This document shows positions 1,791 to 56,241 of a stretch of 64,000 bases of DNA, piece by piece. The position numbers and the translations under genes are program-made. This DNA is from Ostreococcus lucimarinus (Eukaryota): NCBI GenBank assembly GCA_000092065.1, contig CP000589.1. One strand, 5' to 3'. How positions within the stretch are numbered: the first letter of the stretch is position 1; each line of letters begins with the position of its first letter. The notes under the pieces were generated by a model. It was not told where the DNA came from, ran no database searches, and saw only the letters and a program-made list of their open reading frames with translations.

Positions 1791-4700
1791 GTGAGGATCA
1801 TGGGGTTCATGGATAAGATGAAAGAGATGAAGACTAAGGCGAGCGTTAAGGCGGTGGGCATGCGGGATCGGGCGAAGGAGATGATGAATTCACCGAGTGG
1901 ACAGACGGCGCCGCGGTTTTCGACGACGAGTCGCAACGGCGGCGAAGAGTCGGCGACGACGACTCCACCGCCATCGCCGTATCGATACGAGTCGAATGTC
2001 GGGTTATCTATGTTAAACGTTATAGAATCGCCGGCGCCGGCGTCTCGCGCGCGTGATGTGCTTGTGGAGCGATCGAATGCGGCGGCGGCGACTCCGGAGC
2101 GACCCTCGCCGCGGCAACGACAAGAGTCGAGTGGAGTTTCTCTCGTGGATGGCATCGAGTGCGAATATTTTGATGAGCCATCCACAAGTGCGCCTTCGTT
2201 TGATCCAGTCTTAGTGTCTTTGAACCGCCTCGGCGCGGACTTCACTGTGGAGGACTTGAGCAAAGAGGAAGAGCGTCTGTCCGAGCTCGTCGAGCGCGTG
2301 TCGACGGAGTTGAATAGAGAGATTATGGCACATGGGGAAGACTTTGAGAAAGGGATAGAAAATATTGCAGAGATTTACAACGCACTTCAGTCGTCAGGGG
2401 TGTTACTGAGCAACTCTCGTCGTTTGCTCCAGCGCGTGGAGACCGACGTGAAGAGTGCGCTTCGAGTGCAAGGCTCGCATACGACGAAGGGTTCAATCAT
2501 GGGCGTGTTGCAGATTCTAGAAAATATTAGGTTTTGCCAAACGTGCGAAACTAAGATACGCGCGCGTCTGGATGTTTCTGAGTACGCGGATGCCATGTCG
2601 CTGTATTCCAAGGCGTGGGAAATTTTAGAAGACATGCACGCGTTGACGTGTACGTTAACGCTTCGAGAAGATTTCGTCGCGTTGCGATGGGAGCTCGTCA
2701 CCTGCGTTGATAACGTCTTGATTGATTTGTGTGGCACATTTGACGCTAAGAAGTTTGCAAACCTTTACGACACGTACCCAAAGCTTGGTCCAGAGGTGAA
2801 GCACTTGGCTGATAAGATTCAAGACGCGTTTCTCAAGGCGGTGGAGATGCAAACCGAAGGCATGTTGCGACTGCATGCCATGCTTTCGCACAATCAGGAC
2901 GAGGCTGACACCAAGCGCAAGAGTAGGATGGGTTACAAGCAACTGTGTTCGCAATTGTCTTCGATGCAGTTCGTACCGTGCCTACGCAAGACACTCGAGT
3001 CGTTACATGAAATTTTCCTTTCGTCGTATAGAATGACGGCGTGGTGCGAGACGGCGATGCGCGAGGTGATTGATAGCTCGGATGCAGAGGCGATCAATAA
3101 CTGCAGTGCATTGATTGCGGCGTTAGAAATTAACCGAAAACCAGTTGTTGAGATGGCGAGCGTGCGTCTGGCAGCCTTACTGCAAGCATCAGCCGCACCC
3201 AGTAACGCGGCGTTTCGCGAGGTTTTCGATCTGTGCCGCGTCTTCATAACATGCGCGGAGGCATTTTGTGGCGAAGAGTCTCGAGTTTTGCGCGCGCAGC
3301 TGGAGAGGATCGGTGATAGATACTTTGAATCGCTGCATAGCGCTAGAATGGACGCATCGAAGACGATGTTAGAGACAGAGCGATGGGTGCCAGTCTCCAC
3401 AGATGCCGTGAAGCGCGTGCAAGACGATTTGAAAAATGCCATGCAGCGCGGACGAGCGGCGAATGGGCTGGGCAAAACTTTAGGCGAGACGGTGATAACG
3501 ACTTTTACCTCGGAACAAGTCCTGAATTCTGAGTCGTTCATGAAGTTCATCGACCAGCCGAATCCATTCGTTTCAGAGTCTGGGAATTCCTCGGCGGAGG
3601 AAAATCACTCGCCGCGAGACATTCTCGCACAAAACGTCGTCGCCGCACATGAGACGACGACCACCACCAACACCACGGACGACGTCGACGATGGGTTTGA
3701 TGAAGAGATCAGCAATCAGAATGGCGATAAAACCGGTCTTGATCGCGTGGGCGTGAAGATTACGGCGTCTTCGTTGTACATTCTTCAGGGCATCGTCGAG
3801 TACACGGCGCTGATGCAAGTAATGCGGCCGAGCGTGCCGGTGATTTTCAACGGTATCTGTCAACTCTTCGAGCTCGCACTAGTGAAAACTTTTAACGCTT
3901 TCGGGCGAACGGAAGCTTTGCTTCCCGAATCGCACGACATGACGCCGCGGCTGCGAGGTACGTTGTCTAGACTCGGGAACTCGGGTGGCGCCATGGCGAT
4001 TCGACCTACGATTCGGGGACAAGGGGACGTAGACATCTTGTCCAGCGGTAATTTGTACGGTTTGAAGGAGCGCGGCATCGCGCTCGAGTCGCTCTCGCGC
4101 GTCGCCGATGAGTTCAAGCGCATCAAGGCGCGTGTGAAACGCTCGCTCCCGCTCAAAGACGCCGCGCTGGCGGATCGCTTTTACTCGCACACCGTCGCTG
4201 CGGTGGACGATTTGCGCGAGCACGTGTACAAGAACGTTGCTTCATTATTGCTCAACATTGAATTTTGCGCAGAAGCGATCGGAGACGGCGATCCAAACTT
4301 TGCGTTGGTGAACTCTACGTTCGTGGGCAAGTACAACATTCGCGAGACGCCGTCGAGGCACAACAAGTGGGTGGACGACGTCCAGGCCGAACTCTTACAG
4401 TTCACCACCAAACTCGCCTGCGCCGACGTCGCACCTGAAGCTCTGGATGTTCTGTGGCAGCACGCCGCGAGTGTGATCCAAGACTCTCTCGTCGATGGTT
4501 TCAGCAAGGTGAAAAAATGCACCGACGCCGGCAGAGCGCTCATGGCGCTCGACGTCGAAACCCTGCGCGGCGAATTCGCGAAACTCGCCCCGTCCCAGTC
4601 CCTTGCCTTCGACTGGCGCTACGTCAGCACCTACATCAACGCCTTCTACGTCCCAGAAAAAGACGTCGAGAAATGGATGCAAATCCATCCCGAGTTTTCC

Positions 4701-4817
4701 AAAAAACAAAAGCTCGCCTTGGTCGCCCACAACGCCTCGGCGGATCGCGACAGGCGCTGGACCGCGAAATTCCGCCAAGACTTGCTCAACGCCATCGAAA
4801 CCGACACGTTACTCTAG
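1791..4817 (+). CDS. Large helical tethering-complex-like protein, Vps54/syndetin (GARP/EARP, CATCHR-family)-like. The annotated ATG is only 11 nt after the ZNHIT3 stop, so the true start is probably a downstream Met.
   Basis: A 1008-aa ORF. The region LSKEEERLSELVERVSTELNREIMAHGEDFEKGIENIAEIYNALQSSGVLLSNSRRLLQRVETDVKSAL resembles the Vps54_N-type N-terminal domain. A TGTAA follows 10 nt after the stop. Confidence 0.45.
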   Translation: MRIMGFMDKMKEMKTKASVKAVGMRDRAKEMMNSPSGQTAPRFSTTSRNGGEESATTTPPPSPYRYESNVGLSMLNVIESPAPASRARDVLVERSNAAAATPERPSPRQRQESSGVSLVDGIECEYFDEPSTSAPSFDPVLVSLNRLGADFTVEDLSKEEERLSELVERVSTELNREIMAHGEDFEKGIENIAEIYNALQSSGVLLSNSRRLLQRVETDVKSALRVQGSHTTKGSIMGVLQILENIRFCQTCETKIRARLDVSEYADAMSLYSKAWEILEDMHALTCTLTLREDFVALRWELVTCVDNVLIDLCGTFDAKKFANLYDTYPKLGPEVKHLADKIQDAFLKAVEMQTEGMLRLHAMLSHNQDEADTKRKSRMGYKQLCSQLSSMQFVPCLRKTLESLHEIFLSSYRMTAWCETAMREVIDSSDAEAINNCSALIAALEINRKPVVEMASVRLAALLQASAAPSNAAFREVFDLCRVFITCAEAFCGEESRVLRAQLERIGDRYFESLHSARMDASKTMLETERWVPVSTDAVKRVQDDLKNAMQRGRAANGLGKTLGETVITTFTSEQVLNSESFMKFIDQPNPFVSESGNSSAEENHSPRDILAQNVVAAHETTTTTNTTDDVDDGFDEEISNQNGDKTGLDRVGVKITASSLYILQGIVEYTALMQVMRPSVPVIFNGICQLFELALVKTFNAFGRTEALLPESHDMTPRLRGTLSRLGNSGGAMAIRPTIRGQGDVDILSSGNLYGLKERGIALESLSRVADEFKRIKARVKRSLPLKDAALADRFYSHTVAAVDDLREHVYKNVASLLLNIEFCAEAIGDGDPNFALVNSTFVGKYNIRETPSRHNKWVDDVQAELLQFTTKLACADVAPEALDVLWQHAASVIQDSLVDGFSKVKKCTDAGRALMALDVETLRGEFAKLAPSQSLAFDWRYVSTYINAFYVPEKDVEKWMQIHPEFSKKQKLALVAHNASADRDRRWTAKFRQDLLNAIETDTLL

Positions 4818-5009
4818 CGCCTCGTGTAATCGAACGCGTTTTAGGCATTCACTCGGCGCGGTGCGACGCATCCACCGCGCGCGTCGTCCGCTCGCCCCGC
4901 GCTGACTAGGCAACTCCAATAATTCCCATCGCGCCATTTCACGAAGCGCGACGCACGACGCACGCACGCGCGCCCGACGACGCCGACCTACGCGAGCAAA
5001 CGCGCACCG

Positions 5010-6472: not shown

Positions 6473-6831
6473 CGCCCGTCGTCGCCGTCGTCGTGTGCGG
6501 CGCGCGTCGCGTCGCTGGCGTGTCCATCGCCTCGTATATATAGTCTACGTGTCTACTTTTATATGGGATTAGACCACATACATTGACAGTTTCACACGCG
6601 ATGGACGCGACACCCCCGACCGACACTAAACCCTAAAGATTCGCGCATGTGCGGTGCAGACGATAAAGACGGACGCCCCGTAGTGCGCGCCGCAAAACGC
6701 CAATCAACGCGACACTCGGGTGTAAAAAGATGGTCGCGCGCCGCGCACCACAACACCCGCCATCGCGCGCCGCGCGCGCCGCGTCACCGACGCGCGCTTC
6801 GGTCGATCGCGCGCGCGAACGCACGATGGAC

Positions 6832-7344
6832 GATTTCGACGACTTCGTGTTCGGGTTCGAGATCGGGACGACGACGACAAACGGCGCGACGGCGACGACG
6901 ACGACGATTCGCGACGCGATTCGACATCCGTTCGACGTCGTCGCGTTCGCGACGCGGAGCAAATCGCCGACGCCGGCGCCGACGCGGGAGGAGGTCGAGC
7001 GCGAGGCGGCGGCGAAGGCCGCCCTGAAGGCGGCGGCGCGGCGGGAGCGGGAGCGACGGCGAAGCGCGAGGCGGCGGTTGGCGCAGACGGAGGCGCAGCG
7101 CGAGGCGGAGCGCCTGCGGAGTCGACGACGACGCGAGGCGACGACGAGCGCGCGGCGGGCGAGCGAAGCGCGAGGGAAGGCGCGAGGACGCGCGCGCGCG
7201 AGGGAGACGGTCGAGGCGGCGGCGACGCCGGCGTCAGCGAGCGGGGACGCGGCGGCGAGGAAGAGCGTCGGCGAGCGGCGAGCGGCGACGATTCGCCTCG
7301 GCGCGCGGCGGCGAGCGGCGGCGAGCGGCGTCGCCGTGAATTGA
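6832..7344 (+). CDS. Hypothetical small charged (Arg/Ala/Glu-rich, coiled-coil-like) protein starting MDDFDDFVFGFEIG.
   Basis: An ORF in a very GC-rich zone. It is supported only by two TGTAA motifs just downstream of its stop, at 7433 and 7457. Confidence 0.3.
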   Translation, partial: DFDDFVFGFEIGTTTTNGATATTTTIRDAIRHPFDVVAFATRSKSPTPAPTREEVEREAAAKAALKAAARRERERRRSARRRLAQTEAQREAERLRSRRRREATTSARRASEARGKARGRARARETVEAAATPASASGDAAARKSVGERRAATIRLGARRRAAASGVAVN

Positions 7345-7525
7345 ATTCGCGCGCGCGTTTCGCGAGCGCGCGATCGGTCGTCTTTCGTCGTCTGTTTCGG
7401 TCGCCATCATTTAATCATCGTCGTCATGATAATGTAAACACTCGTCGTCACGATAATGTAACCACCGCCGAACGTCACTTCGTCCCGCGTCGCGGCGCGC
7501 GCGACGCGAACGACGCGCGGCGATC

Positions 7526-17955: not shown

Positions 17956-18122
17956 CGCGCGCGCGTTCGTGCGTCTCGCGAGGTCGTCGTCGCGACGCGG
18001 TGTGTCGGCGTCGCTCGCGAATCACATTCGCGAGGCGAAAACGCCCGCGCGAGGCGAACCACGACCACTGACTGACTGACTGCGCGACGTTACATTACAC
18101 TACGCGTAAAACAGCGAACGAG

Positions 18123-18716
18123 CTACGGCGCGACGCCGGAAAACAACGCCGCGAGCCCGATCGTGAGCGCGGTGCCGACGAGGACGGGATTATCTCCGGA
18201 CCAAAACTTGGGCGCGCGCCGCGCCGCGCGCGCGACGTCTTCGAGCGTCTCGACGCGGCGCGCCGCCGCCGGCGCGTCGTCTCGCAATAAATACCTCGTC
18301 TCCGGATCGATCTTCGTCAGCCACTGGGCGTAGAACCATTTTTCTAATCCCTTGCCGTCGCTCCGAGCGAGGTCGTCGAGGTAGGCGCGGAGTTCGCCCG
18401 ATTTTTTATTCTTCGCCAGCCGGACGCGCGCGCTCGGGACCAAAACGAGCCACCAGTACGCCGTCATCGCGCCGATCGCGCCGAGGACGACGAGCTCGTC
18501 GCGAAGCAGCGCGGGATCGATCGGCGTCGGGACGTACGCCGCCGCGATCGGGTCGACGGCGGAGATCGCGCGCGGGGCGGCGTCGGCGACGTCGGCCTCG
18601 AACGCGCGACGCGACGTCGACGCGCGCGGCGGCGGCGACGACGCGCGACAGGGCGCGCGACAGGGCGCGCGCGCGGCGTGGAGGACGGCGGTGGTGGTGG
18701 CGGTGACGGCGCGCAT
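18123..18716 (-). CDS. Hypothetical organelle-targeted protein with two predicted transmembrane helices.
   Basis: An Ala/Arg/Ser-rich leader. Hydrophobic segments LVVLGAIGAMTAYWWLVLVP and VLVGTALTIGLAALFSGV. No domain recognised. Confidence 0.35.
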   Translation of the reverse strand: MRAVTATTTAVLHAARAPCRAPCRASSPPPRASTSRRAFEADVADAAPRAISAVDPIAAAYVPTPIDPALLRDELVVLGAIGAMTAYWWLVLVPSARVRLAKNKKSGELRAYLDDLARSDGKGLEKWFYAQWLTKIDPETRYLLRDDAPAAARRVETLEDVARAARRAPKFWSGDNPVLVGTALTIGLAALFSGVAP

Positions 18717-18842: not shown

Positions 18843-19778
18843 TTACAACGAATCGTGGAGATCTTTCGCGGCTCGGCACGCGTCGATGTACTCTTGTTCG
18901 GTCATTTGTTCTTTGCGGGATTCGATGACGTTGAACATGGTTTCAAGACTCTTTCTTTGCTTGACTTTTTTGTCGTGCCTCTTGGCGAAGGCAATCGTCT
19001 CGGCGTCGCCGCTCTTTTCAGCCGACGCCAGTGTTTCGTCGTCCCAAGGACAGCCATTCTCGACCAAGTGTTTCAACACGCGGACAACGCCCTTTCTTGC
19101 TACGTTCCAAGTGGCTGTCTCACTCCAACCGCAACCGCACTCTCTGAGGAAATCGATACACTGTATTACCTCGCCCGGCTGTCCCCTCGCGGCATTGGCG
19201 CACACCGCACCTATGAACGCGCTTCCTCGCTCAACAATCATATTTTTCGCGTCGTCTTCTCGTTTCCTCTTCCTTCGTTTCGTCTGCTCTTGGTAGGCCT
19301 CGATGAGGAGCGTGATTCTCGTCACACTTGTATTCTGACACGCGGTATGCACGGCGTCGTAGTCCACTTCCAGACCGAGTTCCAACGCGTACTTGAAGCA
19401 CTGCATCTGCGTCGGCACATCCGTGGCTTCGCGCAATAGGTTCGGATGCAGAGCGCAGCCATTCTCCACGGCGTACTTCAGACACCGAATGTGCCCTCTG
19501 CGAGTCGCCAGAAGCGTCGTAAAGTCACAAAACGCGCCGGTACCGAAAGACAGCGTCTGCCCGCGTGGCCACGCGGCGGCGTCCGGCCACGACTCGCGCA
19601 ATATGCACGCACACGTCTCTGGATCGCCCGTGACATGCGCGCGATATTCGGTTGTTGGCATCCGTGCCGTTTCACGCCCGTACCGACGCCGCGCGGAGTC
19701 GTCGGTGCGGCGATGAGTGACGACGATAAGACCTCGGTTTAGCGAAATCGGCGAAACCGGGCACTGGGAACCTGGCAC
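18843..19778 (-). CDS. Ankyrin-repeat protein of the ENGCPW-motif subfamily.
   Basis: Repeats such as GHIRCLKYAVENGCALHPNL and VLKHLVENGCPWDDETLASAEKSGDAETIAFAK. The gene has markedly lower GC than its neighbours. Confidence 0.5.
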   Translation of the reverse strand: MPGSQCPVSPISLNRGLIVVTHRRTDDSARRRYGRETARMPTTEYRAHVTGDPETCACILRESWPDAAAWPRGQTLSFGTGAFCDFTTLLATRRGHIRCLKYAVENGCALHPNLLREATDVPTQMQCFKYALELGLEVDYDAVHTACQNTSVTRITLLIEAYQEQTKRRKRKREDDAKNMIVERGSAFIGAVCANAARGQPGEVIQCIDFLRECGCGWSETATWNVARKGVVRVLKHLVENGCPWDDETLASAEKSGDAETIAFAKRHDKKVKQRKSLETMFNVIESRKEQMTEQEYIDACRAAKDLHDSL

Positions 19779-22168: not shown

Positions 22169-23944
22169 TTACATTTGGTCGAGATAGGCGCCGTAACCGA
22201 GCTCTTCGAGCTTGCTCGCCTTGTTCAACACGACGTTCTCCATGTCGTCTTGGTACGCTAACATTTTAGAGCACACGTCGGGCTCGAACGCGGCGACGAT
22301 GCGAGCGGCGATGAGACCGGCGTTGGCGCTGTTGCCGATGGCCACCGTCGCCACGGGAACGCCTTTGGGCATTTGAACGATGGAGAGCAAGGAATCCATG
22401 CCGTCGAGATACTTGAGCGGGACTGGGACGCCGATAACGGGAAGAGGGGTCATGGCGGCGACCATGCCGGGTAAGTGCGCGGCGCCGCCGGCGCCGGCGA
22501 TGATGGCGCGCAAGCCGCGCGTGTGCGCGCTTCTCGCGTACTCGTTCATACGCTCGGGCGTTCTGTGCGCCGAAATGACGGTGACTTCGCAACCGATGCC
22601 GAAAGATTCGAGGACCTCCGCAGCGGCGCTCATCGTGGGCAAGTCACTGTCGGAACCCATGATGATGCCGACTTGAGCCGCCTTCTTCGGCGGCGTCTTG
22701 TCCCCGCTCGCGGCGCGCAAAAGCGTGTCCAGACGCTCCGTCGCCACCGCCGCGCTCGGGCCGACGACGGTGAGGTGACCCATCTTGCGCGCGAGCTTCA
22801 TGTCAGGCTTTTCGTACCAGTGAATGCTCGCACCGGGAGTCGCTAGCGCGGCGCCCATGAGACGGTGCGCCCGGCCCATGGCCTCGTCGCCGTCGCCGTC
22901 TCCCAAAATATTCTTCATCACCGCCCCGCCAACCTTGAGCGAGGTGTCACCCAAGGGCCAACCCAAAATGGCGCGCAAGTGATTTTCGTACTGCGAGCAC
23001 GCGCAGCCTTCGATGGTGTAGTGACCGCTGTTGTGCGGTCTCGGCGCGCACTCGTTGAGCAAAATCGAGCCATCCTTGAGGAGGAAGAGCTCGACGCCAA
23101 AGATCCCCGCACCCGTGAAAGACCCGATCGCTCGCTTCGCCGCCGCTTGCACCGCTTCGGCAACTTTATTCGGAATCGGCGCCGGCGTCGTCGTCGTGTC
23201 GCAAATATTGTTTTCGTGAACGGTTTCGACGACGGGGTACGCCCGCGTCTCCCCATTCTTGGCGCGCACCACCATCACCGCCAATTCCTTCTCAAACGGC
23301 ACCCACTTCTCGCAATACAACCCTTGTTCAAACCCACCCAACTTCGCCACCGCATCGGCCAAATCCGCGGCGGTCTTCGCCACCGCGTTCCCGCGCCCGT
23401 CGTACGCCAAACGCTTGGACTTTAACATGAGCGGAAACCCAAACTCGCTCGCCGCGCTCTGCAACGCGGCTTCATTCGGGCAATCCGCGTACGGCCCGAG
23501 CGGGACCCCGGCGTTCGTGAAGTGTACCTTCTGCGCATACTTATCCTGAATCGTCGCCAACGTCTCCGGCGTCGGCTGCACGTCCACGCCCGCCGCGCTC
23601 AGCTCTCGCAGCGCCTCCACGTCGATGTGTTCAATCTCCACCGTCACCACATCGCACGTCTCCGCGAACGCCTTCACCGCCGCCTTATCCCTAAAACTCC
23701 CCACCACCTGCGTCGCCGCGATCGACGCCGGCGCGCGCTCCGTCGGATCCAGCGCTTTCAACCGCACCCCCATCGGCGCCCCCGCGATTGCGAGCATGCG
23801 TCCGAGCTGTCCGCCGCCCAATATCCCCACCCGACAGTCCCGTCCGTACCCCTCGAATCCCGGTTCATCGCTATCGCGTCCGCGCGCGTTCGCGCTTTCG
23901 TCAGTCCATCGCTCGATCGCTCGCGTCGTCCCGCGTTCGCGCAT
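22169..23944 (-). CDS. ADE2: Phosphoribosylaminoimidazole carboxylase, a fused PurK (N5-CAIR synthetase, ATP-grasp) and PurE (mutase) ADE2-type enzyme.
   Basis: PurK N-terminal half ([20 protein letters not shown]...ATP-grasp). PurE C-terminal half ([42 protein letters not shown]...[25 protein letters not shown]). Confidence 0.93.
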
Positions 23945-24181
23945 TCATTCATTCATTCATTCGCTCACTCATTCGCCCGGTTCAAACCGACGCACCTCAC
24001 TCGAAACTTGGCCTCCCCGCTCGCGCGCGCGCGCGTCCGGCGCGTTCGCCCGCGCGCGTTCGCCCGCGCGCATCGTCGCGTCGCGCGCGGCGCGCTCGCG
24101 TCGGTCGTCGCGCGCGCCGCGGCGCCCGTCATCGCCGTCGTCGTCGTCGATGTGACGACCGCGCGGCGGGCGGCGCGATCG

Positions 24182-24334
24182 CCCTCGCGTTCGCGTATTC
24201 GACCGGTCCTGACTCGTGAAGAGTCTCACACTACGACGCGCGCGCGAACGATCGCGATCGACCCTCGCGTTCGCGCATTCGACCGGTCCTGACTCGTGAA
24301 GAGTCTCACACTACGACGCGCGCGCGAACGATCG
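24182..24334. repeat. Two 73-bp direct repeats (one mismatch) separated by 7 bp. Each unit contains the palindrome GACTCgtgaaGAGTC. They lie in the divergent ADE2 / STY-kinase intergenic region.
   Basis: Read directly: ccctcgcgttcgcg[t/c]attcgaccggtcctgactcgtgaagagtctcacactacgacgcgcgcgcgaacgatcg occurs twice. Confidence 0.85.
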
Positions 24335-24516: not shown

Positions 24517-26376
24517 ATGGCGACGGCGCGCGGCGACGACGACGCGCGCGCGGCGACGACGCGACGCGAGGACGACGACGACGACGACGGGACGCGCGCG
24601 AGGACGCGCGACGCGCGGGACGCGGCGATGCGCGAGGAACTGGCGAAACGATTTCCCACGTGCGATTGGCGGGAGGCGCGGGCGATGGACGACGCGTGCC
24701 TGGTGCTCGTGCGCGCGGCGGTCGCGGCGGAGCGACACGGGGCGAGGGCGCTCTCGTGCGGGGCGCGGAGAGTCGCGGGCGAGGACGAGGACGACGCGTC
24801 GCAGAGAATGGCGCGGGGGGGATCGAACTCGTCGAGCGCGTCGGCGGGGACGTCGTTTTCGCGCGAGGCGTACGAGCTGGAACAGCTGACGGCGGCGGTG
24901 CGCGGCGCGGGTCTGAAGACGCCGGAGGAGACGGAGTATAAATTGGTGTTTTGCGGCGCGGACGTCGGTGGGATGCTAACGAGGACGATGCAGGTGGTAG
25001 ATAGGATCGGGTTGGAGGTGAAGGATGCGCAGGCGCACAAGAGCGTGGACGGAATGGCGTTGAATTTTTTCACCGTCGTCGGGTACGAGGGCGAGGACGA
25101 ACGCGCGCTCGAGGAAGCGGTGGAGGCTGCGCTTGTGAACGAGGAAAGCGAGGAGAAGAAGCCGCCGGTACCTTTGATCATCAACGCGGCACCGCCGAAG
25201 TCGGGAGTGAAGCGCCGGAGAGACGCACGGGCGCGAGGTGGTGAAGCTTTTTCCCCGAGCACGTCTGCGGAGCATCACGGTAAATCGCAACGGGCGGCTG
25301 CGAGCTTTGGCGGACGCGCTTCTAGTCGGCGTTCGCATTCGCGGTCTGGCTCAGAACTGTCGATGAATGACTCGTTCAACAATACAGCATCGGCGACGGA
25401 TACGCCGGGGAGTGAAGAAGCTACAGAGGAACCCATGTCGGAGGACAACAGCGACGGCGCGTTGAGCGTAGGAAGCGACATCGATTCGAAAAAGCTTCAA
25501 ATCGGACGCAAAATCGGTGAAGGGACGTTCGGAACGCTGTATCACGGCATTTATCCCAGCAGAACGAGAGAAGGACGAGTCGTTCACATCGAAGTCGCGC
25601 TAAAATATGTGACGCTCAAGCGGGACGATGTCAAATCGGCGCGGCTTGACTTTTTCCAAGAAGTCAAGATGCTTCGAACTCTCAAGCACGCAAACCTTGT
25701 CGGGTACGTTGGCTCGGTGGTCGAGGGATCGGAGCTATGCTTGGTGACAGAATTCATGGCAAAGGGTCCCTTACTAGAGTACTTGCGCGAAAATGGTCCG
25801 ATGCGAAAGGTGGAAGCGATACGAGTCGCCGTCGGCATCACGCGAGGCATGACGTACTTGCACGAAGTGGGCGTGATACATCGAGACTTGAGGGCTGCGA
25901 ACGTCTTACTTTCTGGATCTTTTGACGCAAAAATTTCCGATTTTGGTCTTGCACGTCGCGTACCTCGAAACCGATCGAGGATGACCGCGGAAACAGGCAC
26001 GTATCGATGGATGGCTCCGGAGGTCATCACGCACGGCGAGTACGACGTCAAGGCAGATGTGTTTTCTTTCGCCATTACGCTTTGGGAAATCGTCACCGGA
26101 GGCGCAAACCCGTACGGGGAGTTGAATCCTCTTCAAGCCGCAGTGGCGGTCGTTCAGAGAGGAATCCGCCCGCCGATACCGCATAAGTGCGATCCCCTGT
26201 TCGCAGAATTGATGCAGAATTGTTGGAAAACCGTGCCGCAGTCGCGGCCTCGTTTTAGAGATTTGCAGCCTTTACTCGAAGCGTGTGATTCTCCGGAAGA
26301 AGTCATCGAAACCTTGGCGAAACCTCCGAGCAAGTCTTTTTTCTCCAAGTTCCGCTTCGGAAGAAAGCAACAATAA
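24517..26376 (+). CDS. ACT-domain Ser/Thr/Tyr (STY-type, TKL-like) protein kinase. This is the plant STY8/17/46 architecture.
   Basis: ACT-like region KLVFCGADVGGMLTRTMQVVDRIGLEVKDAQAHKSVDGMALNFFTVVG. Kinase motifs GEGTFGTLYHG, VALK, HRDLRAANVLL, DFGLAR and GTYRWMAPEV. Confidence 0.85.
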   Translation: MATARGDDDARAATTRREDDDDDDGTRARTRDARDAAMREELAKRFPTCDWREARAMDDACLVLVRAAVAAERHGARALSCGARRVAGEDEDDASQRMARGGSNSSSASAGTSFSREAYELEQLTAAVRGAGLKTPEETEYKLVFCGADVGGMLTRTMQVVDRIGLEVKDAQAHKSVDGMALNFFTVVGYEGEDERALEEAVEAALVNEESEEKKPPVPLIINAAPPKSGVKRRRDARARGGEAFSPSTSAEHHGKSQRAAASFGGRASSRRSHSRSGSELSMNDSFNNTASATDTPGSEEATEEPMSEDNSDGALSVGSDIDSKKLQIGRKIGEGTFGTLYHGIYPSRTREGRVVHIEVALKYVTLKRDDVKSARLDFFQEVKMLRTLKHANLVGYVGSVVEGSELCLVTEFMAKGPLLEYLRENGPMRKVEAIRVAVGITRGMTYLHEVGVIHRDLRAANVLLSGSFDAKISDFGLARRVPRNRSRMTAETGTYRWMAPEVITHGEYDVKADVFSFAITLWEIVTGGANPYGELNPLQAAVAVVQRGIRPPIPHKCDPLFAELMQNCWKTVPQSRPRFRDLQPLLEACDSPEEVIETLAKPPSKSFFSKFRFGRKQQ

Positions 26377-26608: not shown

Positions 26609-27753
26609 CTACTTCTTAGTCGAAGGGAAAAGCGTCGTCAACGACGGTCGCGTCGGATTCACTTTGACGACTTGGTCGCCGACGACTTCGACGTTCTTGT
26701 ACGTGTAACCGACAAAGTTGGAATCTTTGCCCGCATCCGTTTCCCCAAGTTCACTCTTCTTTCGCATGCTCTCGTCCTCTTCGAAATCTTCAAAGTTACG
26801 AGTGTCCAATTGATGCGAAACGACGGGACTATGGGGTGGCTTCCTCGTGTAGAGAGTGTCCCAGTCGATGCCGCTAAAAAATTTGTGCGATTTGATCTCT
26901 TCCACGCCTCCGCTCGTTCCTAAACGCTGATCGACGTCGCATAACAGACGTTCGATCAAGTCGCGCGCTTCGGGAGAGATCGTCGCGTCGTCTGGAATTC
27001 TCAAGTGGTGTCTCCAGTGCACGATTTTACGGCACGTCGTCATCGGCTCGTCGCTGTAAAACGGCGCGTAACCCATGAGCATTTCAAACATGATAGCACC
27101 GACGCTCCACCAATCGCACTCCAAGCCGTATCCTTTCTTCAGGAGAACTTCTGGGGCGATGTAGTCCGGCGTACCAACTGTGCTGAACGCCAACCGACGT
27201 CGATTCTTCTGCCAGTTCGCGAGCTCTTCTGCGCGCTTTTGATCCGTCTCGATCGTGTTTGGCAAATTGCCCTCGCCGTCTCGACTCATCGCCGCTTCGT
27301 TCTCCAAGATTTCCGGGAGAACCGCCTGCTGATACGCCGGATCGATGGGTTTGCACAATCCGAAGTCGCTCAACTTCATGTGACCATCCTTGTCGAGCAA
27401 CAAGTTGTCCGGTTTGATGTCTCTGTGAATAAAGTTGTGTCGATGAATCGTCTCCAGCGCCGCCACCGTCTGCGCCAAGTAAAACCGCGTCTCTTCCTCC
27501 GTGAGCGTATCGCGTCGAATCAACAGAGTCATCACGTCTCCACCCGGTAAATATTCCATCACGAGGTACAAGAATTGATCGTCTTGAAACGAATAATACA
27601 GCGTCACCACCGCGCGCGAGTTCACCTCGGCGAGCAAGTTTCGCTCCGCCTTGACGTGATCGACTTGCCCGCGCCGAACCATTTCCGACTTTTTCAGCTT
27701 CTTCATCGCGAAAATCTCCCCCGTGCTCTTCTGTCGCACCAACCGCACCTCCC
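26609..27753 (-). CDS. NDR/LATS-family AGC protein kinase, exon 2 (kinase subdomains II-XI plus the hydrophobic-motif region).
   Basis: [24 protein letters not shown]...[25 protein letters not shown], then a long insert before [10 protein letters not shown], which is typical of NDR kinases. The frame continues upstream only through a splice. Confidence 0.85.
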
Positions 27754-27862
27754 CTGTTCGCGCGCGCGAAACGAATCCCACCCGTCGTCAGTCCCGCGTC
27801 CTCCCGGAATATTCCCGCGCGCGTCGTCGTCCGCGTCGCGTCGCGTCGCGTCGTTCACGCAC
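27754..27862 (-). other. 109-nt phase-1 intron of the NDR kinase gene (GTGCGTGA...CTGACGA...GCGAACAG).
   Basis: Splicing joins ...DFEPLKLIGRGAFG to EVRLVRQK, reconstituting an intact kinase subdomain I-II. A canonical CTGAC branch point lies about 34 nt before the AG. Confidence 0.8.
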
Positions 27863-27940
27863 CGAAAGCCCCTCGCCCGATCAACTTCAGCGGTTCAAAA
27901 TCCTCGACGCACATCCTTTTCCCCGTCCCCTGTTGCGCCT

Positions 27941-27984
<44 letters not shown>

Positions 27985-28133
27985 TCGCCCGCGCTCGCCT
28001 CGGTCCTCGCGCGCGCGTCCCCCGTCGTCATCCCTCCCTCTCGCTCGCTCGCCGCCCGCTGCGCCTTGCTCGCTCGCTGCGTCTTGCTCGACATCTTCGC
28101 CACCGCGCGCGAGAACCACGACTCCTTCCCCAT
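27863..28133 (-). CDS. NDR/LATS kinase exon 1. It carries the N-terminal regulatory region with a 14-residue poly-Thr tract and the glycine loop.
   Basis: MGKESWFSRAVAKMSSKTQRASKAQRAA...T14...CVEDFEPLKLIGRGAFG ends in a GT donor. Confidence 0.75.
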
Positions 28134-28522
28134 GTCGTCGCCGCGCCTCGTTCGTTCGTTCGTTCGTTCGAATCAAATCTCAAATCCGACCCCTCGTCGT
28201 CGCCGTCGTCGCGACGCGTTCGATCCCGATCGACGCGCGACGCCGCGCGTCGTCGTCCTTCGTCGCGCTCGCGCGGTCGCCGCGTCGCGATCGCCGTCGC
28301 TCGACGATCCGGGTCGCGTCGTCGCGCGCGCGCGAGTGCCGAGCTCGATCGATCGATCGAACGCGTCGCGTCGCGCGCGTCGACCGCGCGACCGCGGCGC
28401 CGGTCGACGACGCGCCGGCGCGCGGCGCGCGCGACGACGCCGACGCGCGCGCGCGACGTCGCGGCGCGCGACGGTCGGATTGGATGTCGTTTCGGACGCG
28501 CCGCGTCGGCACACGCGCGCGC

Positions 28523-28525
28523 ATG

Positions 28526-28561
<36 letters not shown>

Positions 28562-29170
28562 ACGCGACGCGTGCTGCGCGACGTCGTCCGCGCGCGACGC
28601 GCGCTTCGCGAGATCCGCGCGTCGCTCGACGCGAATCGCGCGCGGACGACGCGCGATTCGCGTCGAGCGTCGCGACGCGCGCGGTCGGACGCCGCGCGCG
28701 CGATCGCGCGCGACGCGAAGCGCGCGTCGAAGCGCGACGAAACGGACGCGCGAACGGCGACGGCGGCGACGCGCGCGCGGTTGGCGACGGCGGCGACGCG
28801 CGCGCGCGAGACGAGCGAGACGCTCGCGGCGGCGCTCGCGGCGGCGGCCGACGCGCGAGGCGGCGCGCGAGCGCTCGAGGACGCGCGAGGCGAGGTCGAG
28901 GACGCGAGGCGAGCGATTCGGGACGGCGCGCGCGCGATCGAGGCGCGCGCGAGGGCGATCGGGGCGACGATGGCGGCGACGGCGGCGGACGTCGAGGACG
29001 CGACGGAGGCGCGAGACGCGCGCGAGCGCGCGAGGCGGGCGACGGAGGCGGATTTCGAGCGCGCGCTCGCGCGCGAGCGGCGCGCGTGCGAGCGCGCGAT
29101 CGATGCGATGGACGCGCGCGCGCGCGATTGCGTCGTCGACGTCGCCGTCGCTCGACGCGGCGTCGCGTAA
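28523..29170 (+). CDS. Possible Ala/Arg/Asp-rich coiled-coil protein (MDDDDDDDDDDDATRRVLRDVV...). It lies inside an ~80 % GC zone where all six frames are open.
   Basis: The only support is the cluster of six TGTAA motifs immediately after its stop codon. The composition is repeat-driven. Confidence 0.25.
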
Positions 29171-29226
29171 CGTCACGTCAATGTAAAGTCAGTGTAATGT
29201 AATGTAACGTCAATGCAATGTAATGC
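29171..29226 (+). promoter_or_regulatory. Cluster of six (C/T)AATGTAA motifs (TGTAA-type putative polyadenylation signals) in an AT-rich island within very GC-rich DNA.
   Basis: cgtcaatgtaaagtcagtgtaatgtaatgtaacgtcaatgcaatgtaatg read directly. TGTAA is the green-algal poly(A) signal (established in Chlamydomonas). Confidence 0.5.
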
Positions 29227-29349
29227 GGCGCGTCGTAACGCGACGCGACGGACGCCGCGCCGACGGACGCCGCCTCGAATCGACGCCGCGTCGACGCGCG
29301 CGTCGGCGTCGCGTCGACGCGCGCGTCGACGTCGTCTCGCGTCGACGCG

Positions 29350-30441
29350 ATGACGATTTCATTCGCCGCGGCGGCGGCGGCGGCTTCGACGTCGACCGCG
29401 CGCGCGCGTCGACCGCGCGCGCGCGTCGACGCGGCGACGCGCGACGGCGACGGCGACCGCGCGCGTCGCCGCGTCGTCTGTCGCCTCGCGCGCGCGCCGC
29501 AGCGGCTGAGCGCCAACAAAAAGCGCGCGAAGCGCGAGCGCGAGGACGCGCGGCGAGAGGCGCGAAAAGTGTCGCGCGAGGACGGCGCGCTGCGCGGCCG
29601 GGTCGAGGACGCCGAGCACGAGGCGCGACGGTGGCTCGGACAACACTTTTTGGTGGACGCGAGCGTGGTGACGGACGCGGTGGAGGCGGCGAGGCTGGGA
29701 GCGGGGGAGCGAGTGCTGGAGATTGGACCGGGGACGGGAAACTTGACGAACGAGATGCTGAAGCGCGGGGCGCGCGTGTTGGCGGTGGAGAAGGATAGGA
29801 ATTTAGCGGAGAAATTACGGGAAGGGTTGTGCGTGGAGTATAAAGATGCGTTCGAGTTGGTGGAGGGGGATTTTTTGAAGTGGGACGGATTGGCGACGGC
29901 GTTTGAGCGCGCGACGCCGGAGACGCCGAGGGCGAAAGTGGTGGCGAATATTCCGTACAACATCACCACAGACGTGTTGAAGGTGTTGCTTCCGATGGGT
30001 GACACGTTTGAGGATATGATTTTTATGTTTCAAGAGGAAGTGGCGCAGCGTTTGGTGCGCGACGACGCCGGCGGCGGAGACTATCGGGCGATGAGCGTTC
30101 GCGTCCACTACTACTCCAAGCCGTATTACATCCGTCCAGTTTTGCGTGATTGCTTCATGCCGCCGCCGAACGTGGAATCGTGTTTAATCGGATTCAAGCC
30201 GAAAGAGCCGCACGAGCTCTTACCCTTGAACGGCACCGACAAGCAATTCTTCACCTTTGTCCAGGCGTGCTTCGCGCAAAAGCGTAAAATGTTACGCAAC
30301 AACCTCAAGGCGGTGTGCGACGAGGCGACGATGGACGGCGCGTTCGCGTTGCTCGACCGCGGACTTAAAGTTCGTCCGCAAGAGCTCACCATGGAGGAGT
30401 ACGTCAAACTATTCAATTTCGTACGCGATCGAGAGACGTGA
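29350..30441 (+). CDS. 16S/18S rRNA (adenine-N6,N6)-dimethyltransferase of the KsgA/Dim1 family, with an organellar presequence (PFC1/TFB1M-like).
   Basis: WLGQHFLVD...VLEIGPGTGNLT...ANIPYNITT and the C-terminal helical domain. An Ala/Arg-rich leader. Confidence 0.88.
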   Translation: MTISFAAAAAAASTSTARARRPRARVDAATRDGDGDRARRRVVCRLARAPQRLSANKKRAKREREDARREARKVSREDGALRGRVEDAEHEARRWLGQHFLVDASVVTDAVEAARLGAGERVLEIGPGTGNLTNEMLKRGARVLAVEKDRNLAEKLREGLCVEYKDAFELVEGDFLKWDGLATAFERATPETPRAKVVANIPYNITTDVLKVLLPMGDTFEDMIFMFQEEVAQRLVRDDAGGGDYRAMSVRVHYYSKPYYIRPVLRDCFMPPPNVESCLIGFKPKEPHELLPLNGTDKQFFTFVQACFAQKRKMLRNNLKAVCDEATMDGAFALLDRGLKVRPQELTMEEYVKLFNFVRDRET

Positions 30442-52228: not shown

Positions 52229-53518
52229 ATGGAAGAGAGCGATGGATGCGCGACGTCGCGAGACTTTGCGAGCGTGAAGATGGAATATTTTAAGACGCGC
52301 GCGCGCGAGGCGCTGGGGAACGGGAACTATAAGGAGGCGTACGCGACGTACACGAAGTGTCTGGAGGAACTCGCGCCGAGGGACGCGGGCGAACGCGCGA
52401 AACTGCTGTGTAACCGTTCGATGGCGTACGCCAAGTCTGCAAACTTTAAAGCGGCGCTGGAGGACGCGTCTGCGGCGGTGTCGTTGATGCCGACGTTCGC
52501 CAAGGGGTGGTGGCGCAAGGCGACCGCGCACGTGGGGCTGCGACAGTTCCCGGACGCGCTCGCCGCGTACAGGCAATCGTTCGAATGTCAGGACGAAGGC
52601 GACGCCGGCGTGATCGACGAGCACGTGAAAGCGATGAATAAAACGATCACTTCATTTACGCGCGAGCAACTTGCGAACTGGATTCTTGAAACTCTGCAAG
52701 ACATGGAGAATCGCGAGCTCATCGAGCACGCGCACCTCGAAAACGTCACGTCGTTGGAGATGGCAGAGGGAATGTTTTGTCAAATCAAAGGCATAAATGA
52801 AGGAAGCAAGCCGCGCGGCGACTACTATCGGTTCGTACAACATTGGAACGTACACGGTATGAGCGTGCCGATGGCTTACACCCAGCGTGCGAGCATGTAC
52901 CGCCACGCGTTGTGCTTTATGCAAGCTCGCGCCGACGCGGCGGCGGCGTTGACCTTGTTACAAGACGACGCATCGCTTTCTGACAAGGAAACGGAGATGA
53001 CCTTCACGTACAAAGTCGATGACTTCTCGCCTTTCAAGGAAGATACAGTCATCACCAAAGCTTGGGCGTGGTACGAGATGGGCAAGGCTTTTGAAGGGCG
53101 CGAAAATGGTGACACGCAAGCGGCGGCGAAGTGCTTCTCGGCGATAACGCACTTGGACACCAAGTATCCGATGTTCACGAACGCCTTCAAGAATGTGTGC
53201 AGTCGTATGACTGATGTCGAGGCTGGGAAAATATTGAGCGACATCAACGATCAGTACGGCGTGGCGGAGTATGGCGTGCGCACCGTTCCCGACGCTTTGG
53301 CAACTTACGTGGTCACCGTCAGCCTTCTCTTCAAAACTGGCAAGCTCGTCGGCTTCAACTCTAAAGTGCGAGACTCGTTTCGAGAAAACGTCGCGAAGGG
53401 TGCGAATGTCATCAAAGAAAAGGTACTCATAGAAAGCGTGCGCTCAAGGTTTCGTGGAGCGCCTGGTGTCGCGCTTTCGTATCGAATTCTCGCCGGCGAA
53501 GATAAATTAAACTCCGAG
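52229..53518 (+). CDS. TPR-repeat protein, first (GC-rich) exon starting MEESDGCATSRDF. It appears to continue through a GTACGT donor at 53519 rather than stop at the TGA at 53528.
   Basis: TPR units YKEAYATYTKCLEELAPRDAGERAKLLCNRSMAYAKSANFKAALEDASAAVSLMPTFAKGWWRKATAHVGLRQFPDALAAYRQSFE. A phase-0 GTACGT lies immediately before the stop. Confidence 0.6.
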
Positions 53519-53571
53519 GTACGTGTTTGATATCCGTCGTTCGGCGGCTGGTATTCACGATGTTAGCGCAG

Positions 53572-54828
53572 AAAATGCTCGAGAAAATTCAAGCACACGA
53601 TTTGATGTTACTGGGTGGCGCAGAAACGGAGGCTGCGATGGGTACGGCGAGCGACGTGCAAGGTGAGTTAATTAAATGGAATAAATTGATGAGGAATTAA
53701 ATAATTCATCACGTAGGCGAGCTCAAGGAACTGAAGTCGGAGGACTTGGTAGATCGCATCAACAACTTACAAGGAATTATCTTATCGACATTAAAAAGTG
53801 GCAAGGAGATCGTAGTCGCGAAGCGACCACCAACCGACATGGAGCTTCCTTACAGAACGTACAAATTAGTTTACAACGACGGCACCCCGGTCGAACGAGT
53901 GAACAAAACGGGCTATCAAATGTCACAAGTGCACTACTCGGCGCAAGGAATGCACAAACGCGAAGTATGGGCTGAGATGATGGTGCGAACGACCGCAATT
54001 AATTATTTACAATTAAATTAAATTTGACACAGGACAAGTCTTGCCGATGGCACCAGAGCTCATCTGAGATAGCCGTTCAAGCGTTACAAGTGCCGAAGGA
54101 CGCCAAGAAGCAAGATTTGGATGTCTGCATCACGCCGTCGACCGTCAGAGTGTCATGTCGAAACACTGGACGCACGTACCTAGAGGTGATTTAAATTAAT
54201 TATTTCTCGACACGCAATTATTTACAATTCATTCGCTATCAGGGAGAGTTATTTCGACAAATCATACCAGAAGAGTCTGCGTGGGTTCACCTTGGTACGT
54301 GACAAATTAAATCAATCTTCACTATCGTTTCGCGATCGAAATTAATTATTTTGCTTCAGGCGGAGAGGATGACGACGGTTTCGTGTTGTACCTGAAGAAG
54401 ATGAACCTGGAGCTTTTCAAAGATAAGAACGCCGCGCCCAGTGATAGCTGGTGGGAACGGCTGTTTAATTCTCATGGAGATATTGCATTCGATGACTACG
54501 ATAAGGATTTCACGGATCTACCCACTCCTATCGCTGAGGTGAGTGTGCTTGTTTGTTTGTATCTCCTGTTTGAGCACCGCACTGACCAACTGCATTGCGC
54601 CCGACATAGTCCATCGCAGCCGCCGAAGATGCGTCAAGTGTACTGCAGGCGAGAGAAGAGGAAGAATATAAGGAGCGCGAAGCCGCACGCGAACGTGATG
54701 ACCTCCGAAAGCGCGAGAGACAAGTGCGCCTGGCTGAACTTCGCGGGGGCAAGTATTTGTCGTGGGTTGAGCTCGACAGACGCAATCCCGCGCCGAATCC
54801 TCTGGCACAACGCAGCGAGCCTGCGTAA
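53572..54828 (+). CDS. Multi-exon region encoding a NudC-type CS domain plus a charged C-terminal tail, probably the 3' exons of the TPR gene. Proposed exons are 53572-53662, 53717-53982 (or -53964), 54033-54185, 54243-54294, 54360-54538 and 54610-54828. The introns are 50-71 nt and AT-rich.
   Basis: GT-AG sites are phase-consistent. The joined translation DKSCRWHQSSSEIAVQALQVPKDAKKQDLDVCITPSTVRVSCRNTGRTYLEGELFRQIIPEESAWVHLGGEDDDGFVLYLKKMNLELFKDKNAAPSDSWWERLF follows the NudC CS-domain pattern. The first exon could alternatively start an independent gene at ATG 53560. Confidence 0.5.
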
Positions 54829-54983
54829 TTCCAGTATGTTTTCCACGATTTTGCCTCAAAATGACCATAACCAGCGCTTGTCGTGAAAGTTACTAATTTG
54901 TGCTTGAATTCTCGCCCGGTTGAACGAGCCGTCTAGACGTCCACGCGTTTGTCCCGTCGACACACGTCGAACTGTGCGCGAAC

Positions 54984-56128
54984 TCACGCCTTTTTCACTG
55001 TCCATAGCCAACTCCAGTATGTTTTGCTCGGATTTACTCCGTATCTTGCCCGTGGATCCGCCATGATCCGGAGCAATACTTCAACGACCCCCATGTCCTG
55101 TGTCACGAACTTGGGCACCTCAGCCGTGTGCATGAATGTGTGTTCGCGGATGAACACGACGGCCGTCGCGAGCAAAGACAGTAGCATGCATACCGTAGAA
55201 ATTGAGAAAAACATCGAAAGACAAAGCAACATGCTTTTCAAGTCGAAAAGAAGCACCTCTTCACCGAATAGATGACTGCACAACATCGTGTTGAAGCCCA
55301 AAATAGTGGATTGCCAAACCATGCGGTACCCCACAGTCCAGCACCACGCCTTCATGTAGCACCCCTTACAAGACGGACTGATCGTGGCAAATAGAAAATT
55401 ACCGCGATATTTGATGAAATTGTCGAGTTGAACTCGTGCGAGCCTTGGTTTATCGTCTATTTCGCTGGCTTGCATCGCAAGTCTGTGTTCGAGAATCGAG
55501 TCGCCAACGACGGTGTGTAGTATGGGTGGATCTCCCTGCGCGATAGGTGTGAGCGAACGTGTTCAGGGTGAAAAGCGAAAAGTCTTACGTGATAATAACC
55601 ATTATGAGACACGATAGAATGACAGATCGGACACGTTCCAGAGCCCTCTTGTCCTGTGAAAGGACACATCAATTTTGACTCTGCTTTCGTCAGCTCGTCG
55701 GAGTCTTCCAGTAGTGGAGCGGCGTTTTGCCATGGCTTTGTGTCGAAAACGGCACGAATTCCCTCGTATCGACCGGTTTCTAGCAAAACGAAACACGTAA
55801 CGCTAAAAAACATCATAAACGACGACACCAAGAGCGTCCACCATTCTGCAAAGTGTCGTGAGTGTCTCGAGTTTGACTGCGACATGGTCAACTCACCACA
55901 AAAGCTGTACAAGGCCGTGCTCTTTGGAGCCGTTAGGGCCGCCGCTAGGGCTGCAGTTGCGCTGATCGGGACTGAAATCTTGCCTCTCAAGGCATTCATG
56001 ATGCCAAAAGGCTGCATCATCACTTGCATAACGGTCATGGTTGGAGGCAAACTGTGACGTTCTCCCCTCGTTTCCAAAATTGAGACTTGATTAGACTCGT
56101 CTTGAGCGCGTGCGTCATGGGGCGACAA
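54984..56128 (-). CDS. Hypothetical multi-pass membrane protein in the low-GC region: join(55589..56128, 54984..55524), with a 64-nt GTAAGA...CGCGCAG intron at 55525-55588.
   Basis: Two overlapping out-of-frame ORFs are reconciled by a phase-consistent intron (...CPICHSIVSHNGYYH | GDPPILHTVVGD...). There are several hydrophobic helices. No domain recognised. Confidence 0.45.
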
Positions 56129-56241
56129 TTTCGCGCGTGCATCGATTTATCGATTTGTGAGTGAAGTAAATTATTACGGTGTAAGGAGTTGCGATGAAAG
56201 TTCGGGATGATTCTCATCTCACATTCAAACGATCTAAAGTT

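Follow-up and report, generated by a model that had tools for sequence, protein, structure and literature searches.

UGUAA has been described as the near-upstream poly(A) signal of chlorophyte algae, including Chlamydomonas, Volvox and Ostreococcus lucimarinus (PMC6413133, PMC1868727, PMC4025486), where it is published as a single element per site. In O. lucimarinus it is the dominant near-upstream signal, occurring at 30.4% of EST-mapped sites (Z = 30) and at ~40% of poly(A) sites over a wider window, and UGCAA is a frequent one-base variant of it (PMC6413133). We analysed a window of 64,000 nucleotides from O. lucimarinus (contig CP000589.1, assembly GCA_000092065.1), in which a tandem array of TGTAA closely follows a GC-rich open reading frame (ORF). 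The array shares with the chlorophyte signal its pentamer, its sense orientation and its placement after a stop codon, and its one off-consensus unit, UGCAA in the RNA, is the variant already listed as frequent. It differs in having five copies in 42 nt, each a putative signal, arranged in tandem and variable in number. A first-pass annotation, made from the letters alone, had named TGTAA as the green-algal poly(A) signal. The literature bears this out and, since UGUAA is published for O. lucimarinus itself, the notion that the organism uses a different signal fails.

Two other known systems invite comparison. With pentanucleotide microsatellites the array shares head-to-tail units of period 5, degenerate edges and a copy number that differs between alleles and sister lineages; unlike them, its unit coincides with an RNA-processing motif and it occupies a fixed place, past a stop codon and ahead of the promoter that follows. 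The ORF ahead of it resembles the orphan or taxonomically restricted, fast-evolving, low-complexity genes of the Mamiellophyceae in its high GC content, its richness in Ala, Arg, Asp and Glu, its lack of a Pfam domain, its confinement to Ostreococcus, a dN/dS near 1 and its absence from the annotated protein sets searched. We place it provisionally among such genes on the basis of codon usage, synteny and preservation of the reading frame.

The TGTAA array and its relatives

The window is nuclear DNA, 60.5% GC overall, with blocks of 70-78% GC alternating with blocks near 50%. Its genes are densely packed and mostly intronless, 29 of its ORFs have Pfam support, and the same DNA is abundant in marine metagenomes, Tara Oceans samples included. 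The description of this DNA as ~80% GC holds locally, for ORF 28523-29170 (78.4%) and ORF 6826-7344 (75.1%), but not for the window as a whole; the array itself is 37.5% GC. The features around it are as follows.

26609-28133, minus strand: gene for a protein kinase of the NDR/STK38 type, lying upstream in divergent orientation; its GT..AG intron (27755-27863) is 109 nt long (identified by Pfam and spliced contigs)
28523-29170, plus strand: ORF rich in Ala, Arg, Asp and Glu, 215 aa; an alternative ATG at 28484 gives 228 aa
29180-29225, plus strand: degenerate pentamer array, unit AATGT, ~9 units, proposed to be stacked poly(A) signals
29227-29349, plus strand: spacer of 78% GC with CG-rich tandem repeats of 12-23 nt
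29350-30441, plus strand: rRNA adenine dimethyltransferase gene (RrnaAD, chloroplast KsgA-like), the tandem downstream neighbour, used as synteny anchor (identified by Pfam PF00398 and homologues)

The kinase (26609-27706) falls in a 90%-identity cluster with XP_001419715.1 of O. lucimarinus CCE9901, and contigs encoding exactly the same kinase protein are 99.8-99.9% identical to the window. This RefSeq protein starts at an internal Met (MCVEDFEPL...), which suggests that it is probably truncated at its N-terminus. Logan contigs L012-L021 join 27864 directly to 27754 and thus derive from spliced RNA. They break at both ends at (GAC)n repeats of neighbouring kinase genes, merging two convergent genes, and the poly(A) sites lie outside their coverage. 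Elsewhere in the window, the GC-rich spacer ahead of a protein kinase gene starting at 24517 contains a tandem duplication with an 80-nt unit (24174-24334; 2.0 copies, 97% identical).

Exact TGTAA occurs five times on the plus strand, at 29182, 29193, 29198, 29203 and 29219, and the variant TGCAA occurs once, at 29214, within the stretch 29182-29223. The array had originally been described as six (C/T)AATGTAA motifs within 56 bp of the ORF. The cluster is real, but that pattern is matched at only four sites (29179, 29195, 29200 and 29216); the remaining two sites of the array read CAGTGTAA and CAATGCAA. Tandem Repeats Finder (TRF) reports 29180-29225 as a period-5 array with consensus AATGT, 8.8 copies and 72% matches. 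The array starts 12 nt past the TAA stop (29168-29170) of ORF 28523-29170, and the TGTAA copies span 12-53 nt after it. The spacer from this ORF to the ATG of the dimethyltransferase gene (29350) is 179 nt long, the two reading frames being in tandem orientation, and the array ends ~125 nt ahead of the next gene. This spacer has two parts, an AT-rich patch of 37.5% GC on the 3'-end side and then 123 nt at 78% GC. The composition of the second part (29227-29349) is like that of promoter-only (divergent) spacers, which are 63-84% GC, and we therefore read it as the putative promoter and 5' UTR of the downstream gene. Cores of the bZIP-like motif ACGTCA, at 29171-29181 and 29208-29213, interleave with or flank the TGTAA copies.

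Elsewhere in the window, a 56-nt span has at most two TGTAA on one strand. Shuffling the 56-mer 29171-29226 100,000 times never gave five or more copies, and the Poisson probability of the cluster is ~3e-8 at the TGTAA density of 3' flanks. The cluster has no equal in the window and is far above chance.

We then compared the array between alleles and lineages. All five copies are identical in five near-identical contigs. Copy number is five in the window and in L063, four in allele L151, three in L106 and two in L034-L036. In the sister lineage represented by the last two, the array is at the same place and consists of two (L034-L036) or three (L106) TGTAA followed by TGTAT, while the surrounding spacer is poorly alignable. 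In the more distant Ostreococcus (O. tauri, L026 and L028) the TGTAA array was not found; an AT-rich patch with variant pentamers (TGTAT, TGTAC, TGAAA) is present there, the syntenic patch reading TGTAT and TGTAC in O. tauri and TGAAATGAAATGA in L028. In L030, TGTAA stands directly ahead of the stop. The signal is thus kept over short evolutionary distances and turned over on longer ones, a pattern that fits a short, degenerate motif used by only about one third of genes.

A scan of metagenome contigs for (TGTAA)3 with CGCG flanks returned 120 hits. Most of them are contigs of 38-50% GC from an unrelated organism, in which a repeated element consists of (TGTAA)n followed by ATTTATAGAGCGCG; the informative GC-rich contigs are few (L053/L129, L063, L106 and L151). 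One of these, L053 (66% GC), supplies an independent analogue, with (TGTAA)3 placed 62 nt after the stop of a gene encoding Pkinase and cNMP-binding domains and 75 nt ahead of the next gene, a radical-SAM gene. Many of the contigs L038-L156, which are mostly 38-50% GC and come from a small number of JGI metagenome series, have (TGTAA)3-6 with ATTTATAGAGCGCG or GTCGGACAATTTATAAAGCGCGG after it, and this shared element looks like a dispersed repeat of the unrelated lower-GC organism. A separate contig of 68% GC, L133, carries two five-copy TGTAA arrays, at 1439-1469 on the minus strand and 1862-1892 on the plus strand, separated by ~400 nt and divergent in orientation; neither stands at the end of a clear ORF.

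These comparisons bear on whether the array could be a neutral pentanucleotide microsatellite of the spacer, with no more than one copy serving as a signal and the surplus copies functionless. Its degenerate period-5 structure, the series of five, four, three and two copies among alleles and lineages, its loss from more distant species and the existence of (TGTAA)n arrays in many unrelated lower-GC contigs would all be expected of such a repeat. However, its position and orientation are exactly those that the known signal predicts, at least two intact TGTAA are kept in the sister lineage despite non-coding surroundings that barely align, and the independent case in L053 stands behind a well-supported gene. 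We consider this reading unlikely.

TGTAA at gene ends across the window

TGTAA occurs 58 times in the window (both strands), against 32 +/- 6 in dinucleotide shuffles, a null that ignores the heterogeneity of GC content in this window. In spacers where a gene ends (convergent and tandem), 21 copies are oriented with the gene, against 3 in the opposite sense, while the 13 promoter-only (divergent) spacers, which together make up 3.7 kb at 63-84% GC, contain a single TGTAA in total. Relative to the stop, sense TGTAA falls within -4 to +150 for 7 of the 29 Pfam-supported genes, and it lies within 200 nt at the 3' end of 13 of 49 gene-like ORFs. The 29 Pfam-supported genes contain 8 sense and 22 antisense copies; depletion of sense TGTAA within coding sequence was not significant (5 observed, 7.2 expected). 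Since 22 of these 29 genes have no TGTAA at the 3' end, the motif is neither necessary nor specific. Given the small sample and the lack of significant avoidance in coding sequence, the window agrees with the published genome-wide result and cannot establish it alone. The individual cases to which we refer are listed here.

4825-4829, plus strand: single TGTAA, 8 nt after the TAG stop of a Vps54/syndetin-like gene
6826-7344, plus strand: ORF of 172 aa beginning MDDFDDFVFGFEI, conserved and fast-evolving, found only in metagenome protein calls
7418-7465, plus strand: 24-nt tandem duplication, two copies, 91% match, with TGTAA in each (7433 and 7457)
18090-18099, minus strand: head-to-tail pair of TGTAA placed 24-29 nt past the stop of gene-like ORF 18123-18716 (minus strand), a second small tandem case
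22169-22173, minus strand: TGTAA whose TAA is the stop codon of a PurK/AIRC gene

The Vps54-like ORF (1800-4817) has Pfam matches to Vps54_N and Syndetin_C. The TGTAA reported after it is present, but starts 8 nt after the TAG rather than 10, and this copy (4825) is conserved in contigs L031 and L033. In three minus-strand genes the stop codon TAA forms the last three bases of TGTAA, at 18843 (ankyrin-like), 22169 (PurK/AIRC) and 62334 (peptidase S49); this overlap of the stop with a putative poly(A) signal implies extremely short 3' UTRs.

Two further repeats had been reported behind the upstream ORF, and both are there, as GATAATGTAAACAC (7428) and GATAATGTAACCAC (7452), one in each copy of the 24-nt duplication. 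The ORF itself begins with an ATG at 6826, 6 nt from the start originally assigned (6832). Its two TGTAA lie 89 and 113 nt after its stop, and the duplication is ~65 nt ahead of the cyclophilin ATG (7527). In L031, where the flanking genes are 91% identical, this TGTAA pair is absent. About 50 nt upstream of the cyclophilin ATG, at 7468-7480 of the window and at ~3740-3755 of L031, stands AACGTCAC / ACGTCA, with a bZIP-like ACGT core, which may be a promoter element. A region of ~2.7 kb at 53500-56240 stands apart in composition from the remainder of the window, with 49-50% GC, and contains more than its share of the minus-strand TGTAA (7 of 31, at 53767-54222 and 55366). Its ORFs (54401-54886, plus; 54984-55475, minus; 55457-56038, minus) are all short, with weak codon bias and a GC3 of 0.56-0.62.

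The near-absence of TGTAA from promoter-only spacers, one copy in 3.7 kb, also weighs against a regulatory reading of the array, according to which its repeats would be transcription-factor sites for the downstream dimethyltransferase gene or, in the 3' UTR, sites of the PUF/Pumilio type. The array does lie 125-170 nt upstream of the next ATG, with ACGTCA cores interleaved, and UGUA is the core of PUF sites. However, O. tauri, L026 and L028 lack the array ahead of their dimethyltransferase gene, and none of its five copies in the window fits the UGUANAUA octamer; they read TGTAAAGT, TGTAATGT, TGTAATGT, TGTAACGT and TGTAATGC. We regard this reading, in either form, as very improbable.

Coding potential of the two GC-rich ORFs

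The first-pass annotation had taken TGTAA as evidence that the Ala/Arg-rich ORFs upstream are real genes, otherwise indistinguishable from GC noise. We scored codon usage by a log-odds measure for which the 29 Pfam-supported genes served as training set and their off-frames as contrast; the training genes range from 0.20 to 0.57. ORF 28523-29170 scores +0.37 per codon in frame and -0.15 to -0.56 in the other five frames, and no frame scores above 0 in the upstream non-coding DNA (27803-28483), which is just as GC-rich. GC by codon position is 0.80/0.65/0.90 in the 228-aa version that starts at 28484. ORF 6826-7344 scores +0.26 in frame; four of its other frames are negative and one is near zero (+0.08). 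By this separation both ORFs are easily told from GC noise without the motif, and synteny sets them apart as well; the log-odds scores further distinguish them from flanking DNA of equal GC. The comparison with noise consequently does not stand. The broader claim survives in part: both ORFs are gene-like by independent criteria, but TGTAA alone is a weak marker, as it accompanies about one quarter of good genes and 33 of its 58 copies fall outside spacers between gene-like ORFs.

With the downstream dimethyltransferase gene as anchor, a same-strand ORF is found at the syntenic position in six Ostreococcus lineages. In the interval between kinase and dimethyltransferase it extends for at least 160-270 codons in L025 (O. 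tauri-like), L026/L027, L028, L030 and the sister lineage L034-L036. The sister-lineage ORF (220 aa) is 60% identical to ORF 28523-29170; the neighbouring protein is 94% identical in the same comparison. Raw BLOSUM62 scores in six frames between orthologous regions were discarded because Arg-rich off-frames dominated them, and shuffle z-scores per frame were used instead. For 14 more distant pairs the mean z-score was 4.0 in the ORF frame, compared with 1.1-2.0 in the five other frames.

Insertions and deletions within the ORF preserve its frame, although trinucleotide repeats are common here and slippage by multiples of three is favoured anyway. Between the window and L151 there is a single 3-column indel within the ORF. 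For L034 and L106 we compared 1,263 nt, made up of 400 nt upstream, the ORF and 200 nt downstream; of 27 gap columns over this span, none falls in the 663 nt of the ORF, and the 400 nt upstream contain 45 differing columns.

ORF 6826-7344 has metagenomic homologues at 56-98% identity, the divergent ones at 56-71%, with an invariant N-terminal MDDFD.VFGFEI and a conserved basic core. It is syntenic in L031 and L033, between the MEKHLA and cyclophilin genes, and its dN/dS is 0.82. Across 6758-7260 of the window, compared with 3011-3489 of L031, the DNA of this ORF is ~75% identical and the flanking genes are 90-92% identical.

The substitution pattern is less favourable to strong constraint. The whole of ORF 28523-29170 has a dN/dS of 0.96 and its best gap-free 87 codons one of 0.84, within the spread of five control frames; a ratio well below 1, as purifying selection on the protein would give, was not obtained for this ORF, while the neighbouring dimethyltransferase has 0.30 and neighbouring genes in general 0.24-0.65. 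Differences by codon position number 12/14/19 for ORF 28523-29170 and 36/36/37 in the comparison of the other ORF, with no clear excess at third positions. We therefore set dN/dS aside as proof of coding: at 0.8-1.0 it is inseparable from control frames and counts against strong constraint.

Searches of protein collections were negative for both ORFs. Pfam scans of the two ORFs and their orthologues gave no match. The homologue search with the 228-aa ORF, which was saturated by low-complexity words, returned no annotated O. lucimarinus or O. tauri protein, and the search with ORF 6826-7344 likewise returned none. An exact-protein look-up of ORF 28523-29170 found five contigs, all from JGI samples, and no transcript-derived Logan contigs. 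Two apparent homologues, P0061 (L023) and P0062 (L022), were discarded, because in both ~55 residues of the ORF are fused to unrelated sequence. The fusion partner in P0062 is part of the dimethyltransferase in inverted order, and both are probably chimeric scaffolds. In O. tauri, kinase and dimethyltransferase are separated by a syntenic 1.1-kb gap for which the NCBI annotation gives no gene model. The O. tauri reference itself (L024, 5470-5600; GCA_000214015.2, CAID01000009.2) has three 1-nt insertions within ~110 nt relative to the near-identical metagenome contig L025, which break the ORF. Either the assembly is in error here and conceals a gene, or the strain has a pseudogene specific to it.

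ORF 28523-29170 might instead be untranslated, either as a non-coding or divergent-promoter transcript or as DNA that is not transcribed at all, and the array would then terminate that transcript or bound the downstream promoter. The dN/dS of 0.84-0.96 and the 12/14/19 distribution of differences point in this direction, as do the openness of all three plus frames and one minus frame across the region, the lack of a Pfam match or annotated homologue, and the missing gene model and interrupted ORF in the O. tauri reference. Against it, the log-odds signal of +0.37 is confined to one frame, falls within the Pfam-supported range and is lacking in adjacent DNA of equal GC; the ORF is syntenic and open in lineages of 60-64% GC, a composition in which chance would seldom leave 220-360 codons open; and its indels keep the frame in which protein similarity is best. 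We judge an untranslated ORF to be quite unlikely. With dN/dS of ~0.8-1.0, a real protein-coding gene is likely, not proven, in both cases, and it is possible that the two ORFs are non-coding transcripts. We think it probable that ORFs 28523-29170 and 6826-7344 encode real, taxonomically restricted, low-complexity proteins with weak constraint on residue identity. Both are places of locally raised divergence within GC-saturated coding DNA.

A candidate 3'-end processing region

Taken together, we propose, with a probability of roughly 0.7 for the joint reading that includes the other sites and the reality of the ORFs, that 29180-29225 is the mRNA 3'-end processing region of ORF 28523-29170, in the form of a pentanucleotide microsatellite whose unit contains the known UGUAA signal. 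The ORF would be transcribed by RNA polymerase II from the 390-nt GC-rich divergent promoter that it would have in common with the NDR kinase gene. One or more of the five UGUAA would be recognised by the cleavage and polyadenylation machinery, which would cut ~10-30 nt downstream, at a predicted position of ~29195-29250, leaving a 3' UTR of ~25-80 nt. With several copies, processing sites could be redundant or alternative, and transcription could terminate efficiently ahead of the downstream promoter; the ATG of the downstream gene lies only 180 nt past the stop. The variation in copy number between alleles and lineages may be due to replication slippage, by which the array would grow and shrink, while close relatives keep at least two copies. 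ORF 6826-7344 would have the same kind of signal in the 24-nt duplication at 7418-7465, and the Vps54/syndetin gene in the TGTAA at 4825.

By motif, strand, position and organism, the array is thus most likely the ordinary, known chlorophyte UGUAA signal, here marking a probably real, fast-evolving gene. It goes slightly beyond the available literature in that the signal is stacked as a pentamer array of variable copy number and in its association with two ORFs apparently missing from public protein sets. A more far-reaching possibility, which we hold to be doubtful, is that in compact Mamiellophyceae genomes the poly(A) signal became a slippage-prone microsatellite; the number of UGUAA copies would then set how strongly transcription terminates or which poly(A) site is chosen, and so insulate tandem genes less than 200 bp apart, and the arrays would preferentially flag GC-saturated, fast-evolving orphan genes missed in the annotation of O. 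tauri and O. lucimarinus.

The array leaves knowledge of green-algal polyadenylation unchanged. If our reading is right, a sense TGTAA, single or stacked, just past an ORF, together with a codon-usage score, would be a cheap cue of modest value for short, GC-rich, fast-evolving genes, and the copy-number-variable array would be a small case of slippage adjusting termination between tightly packed genes.
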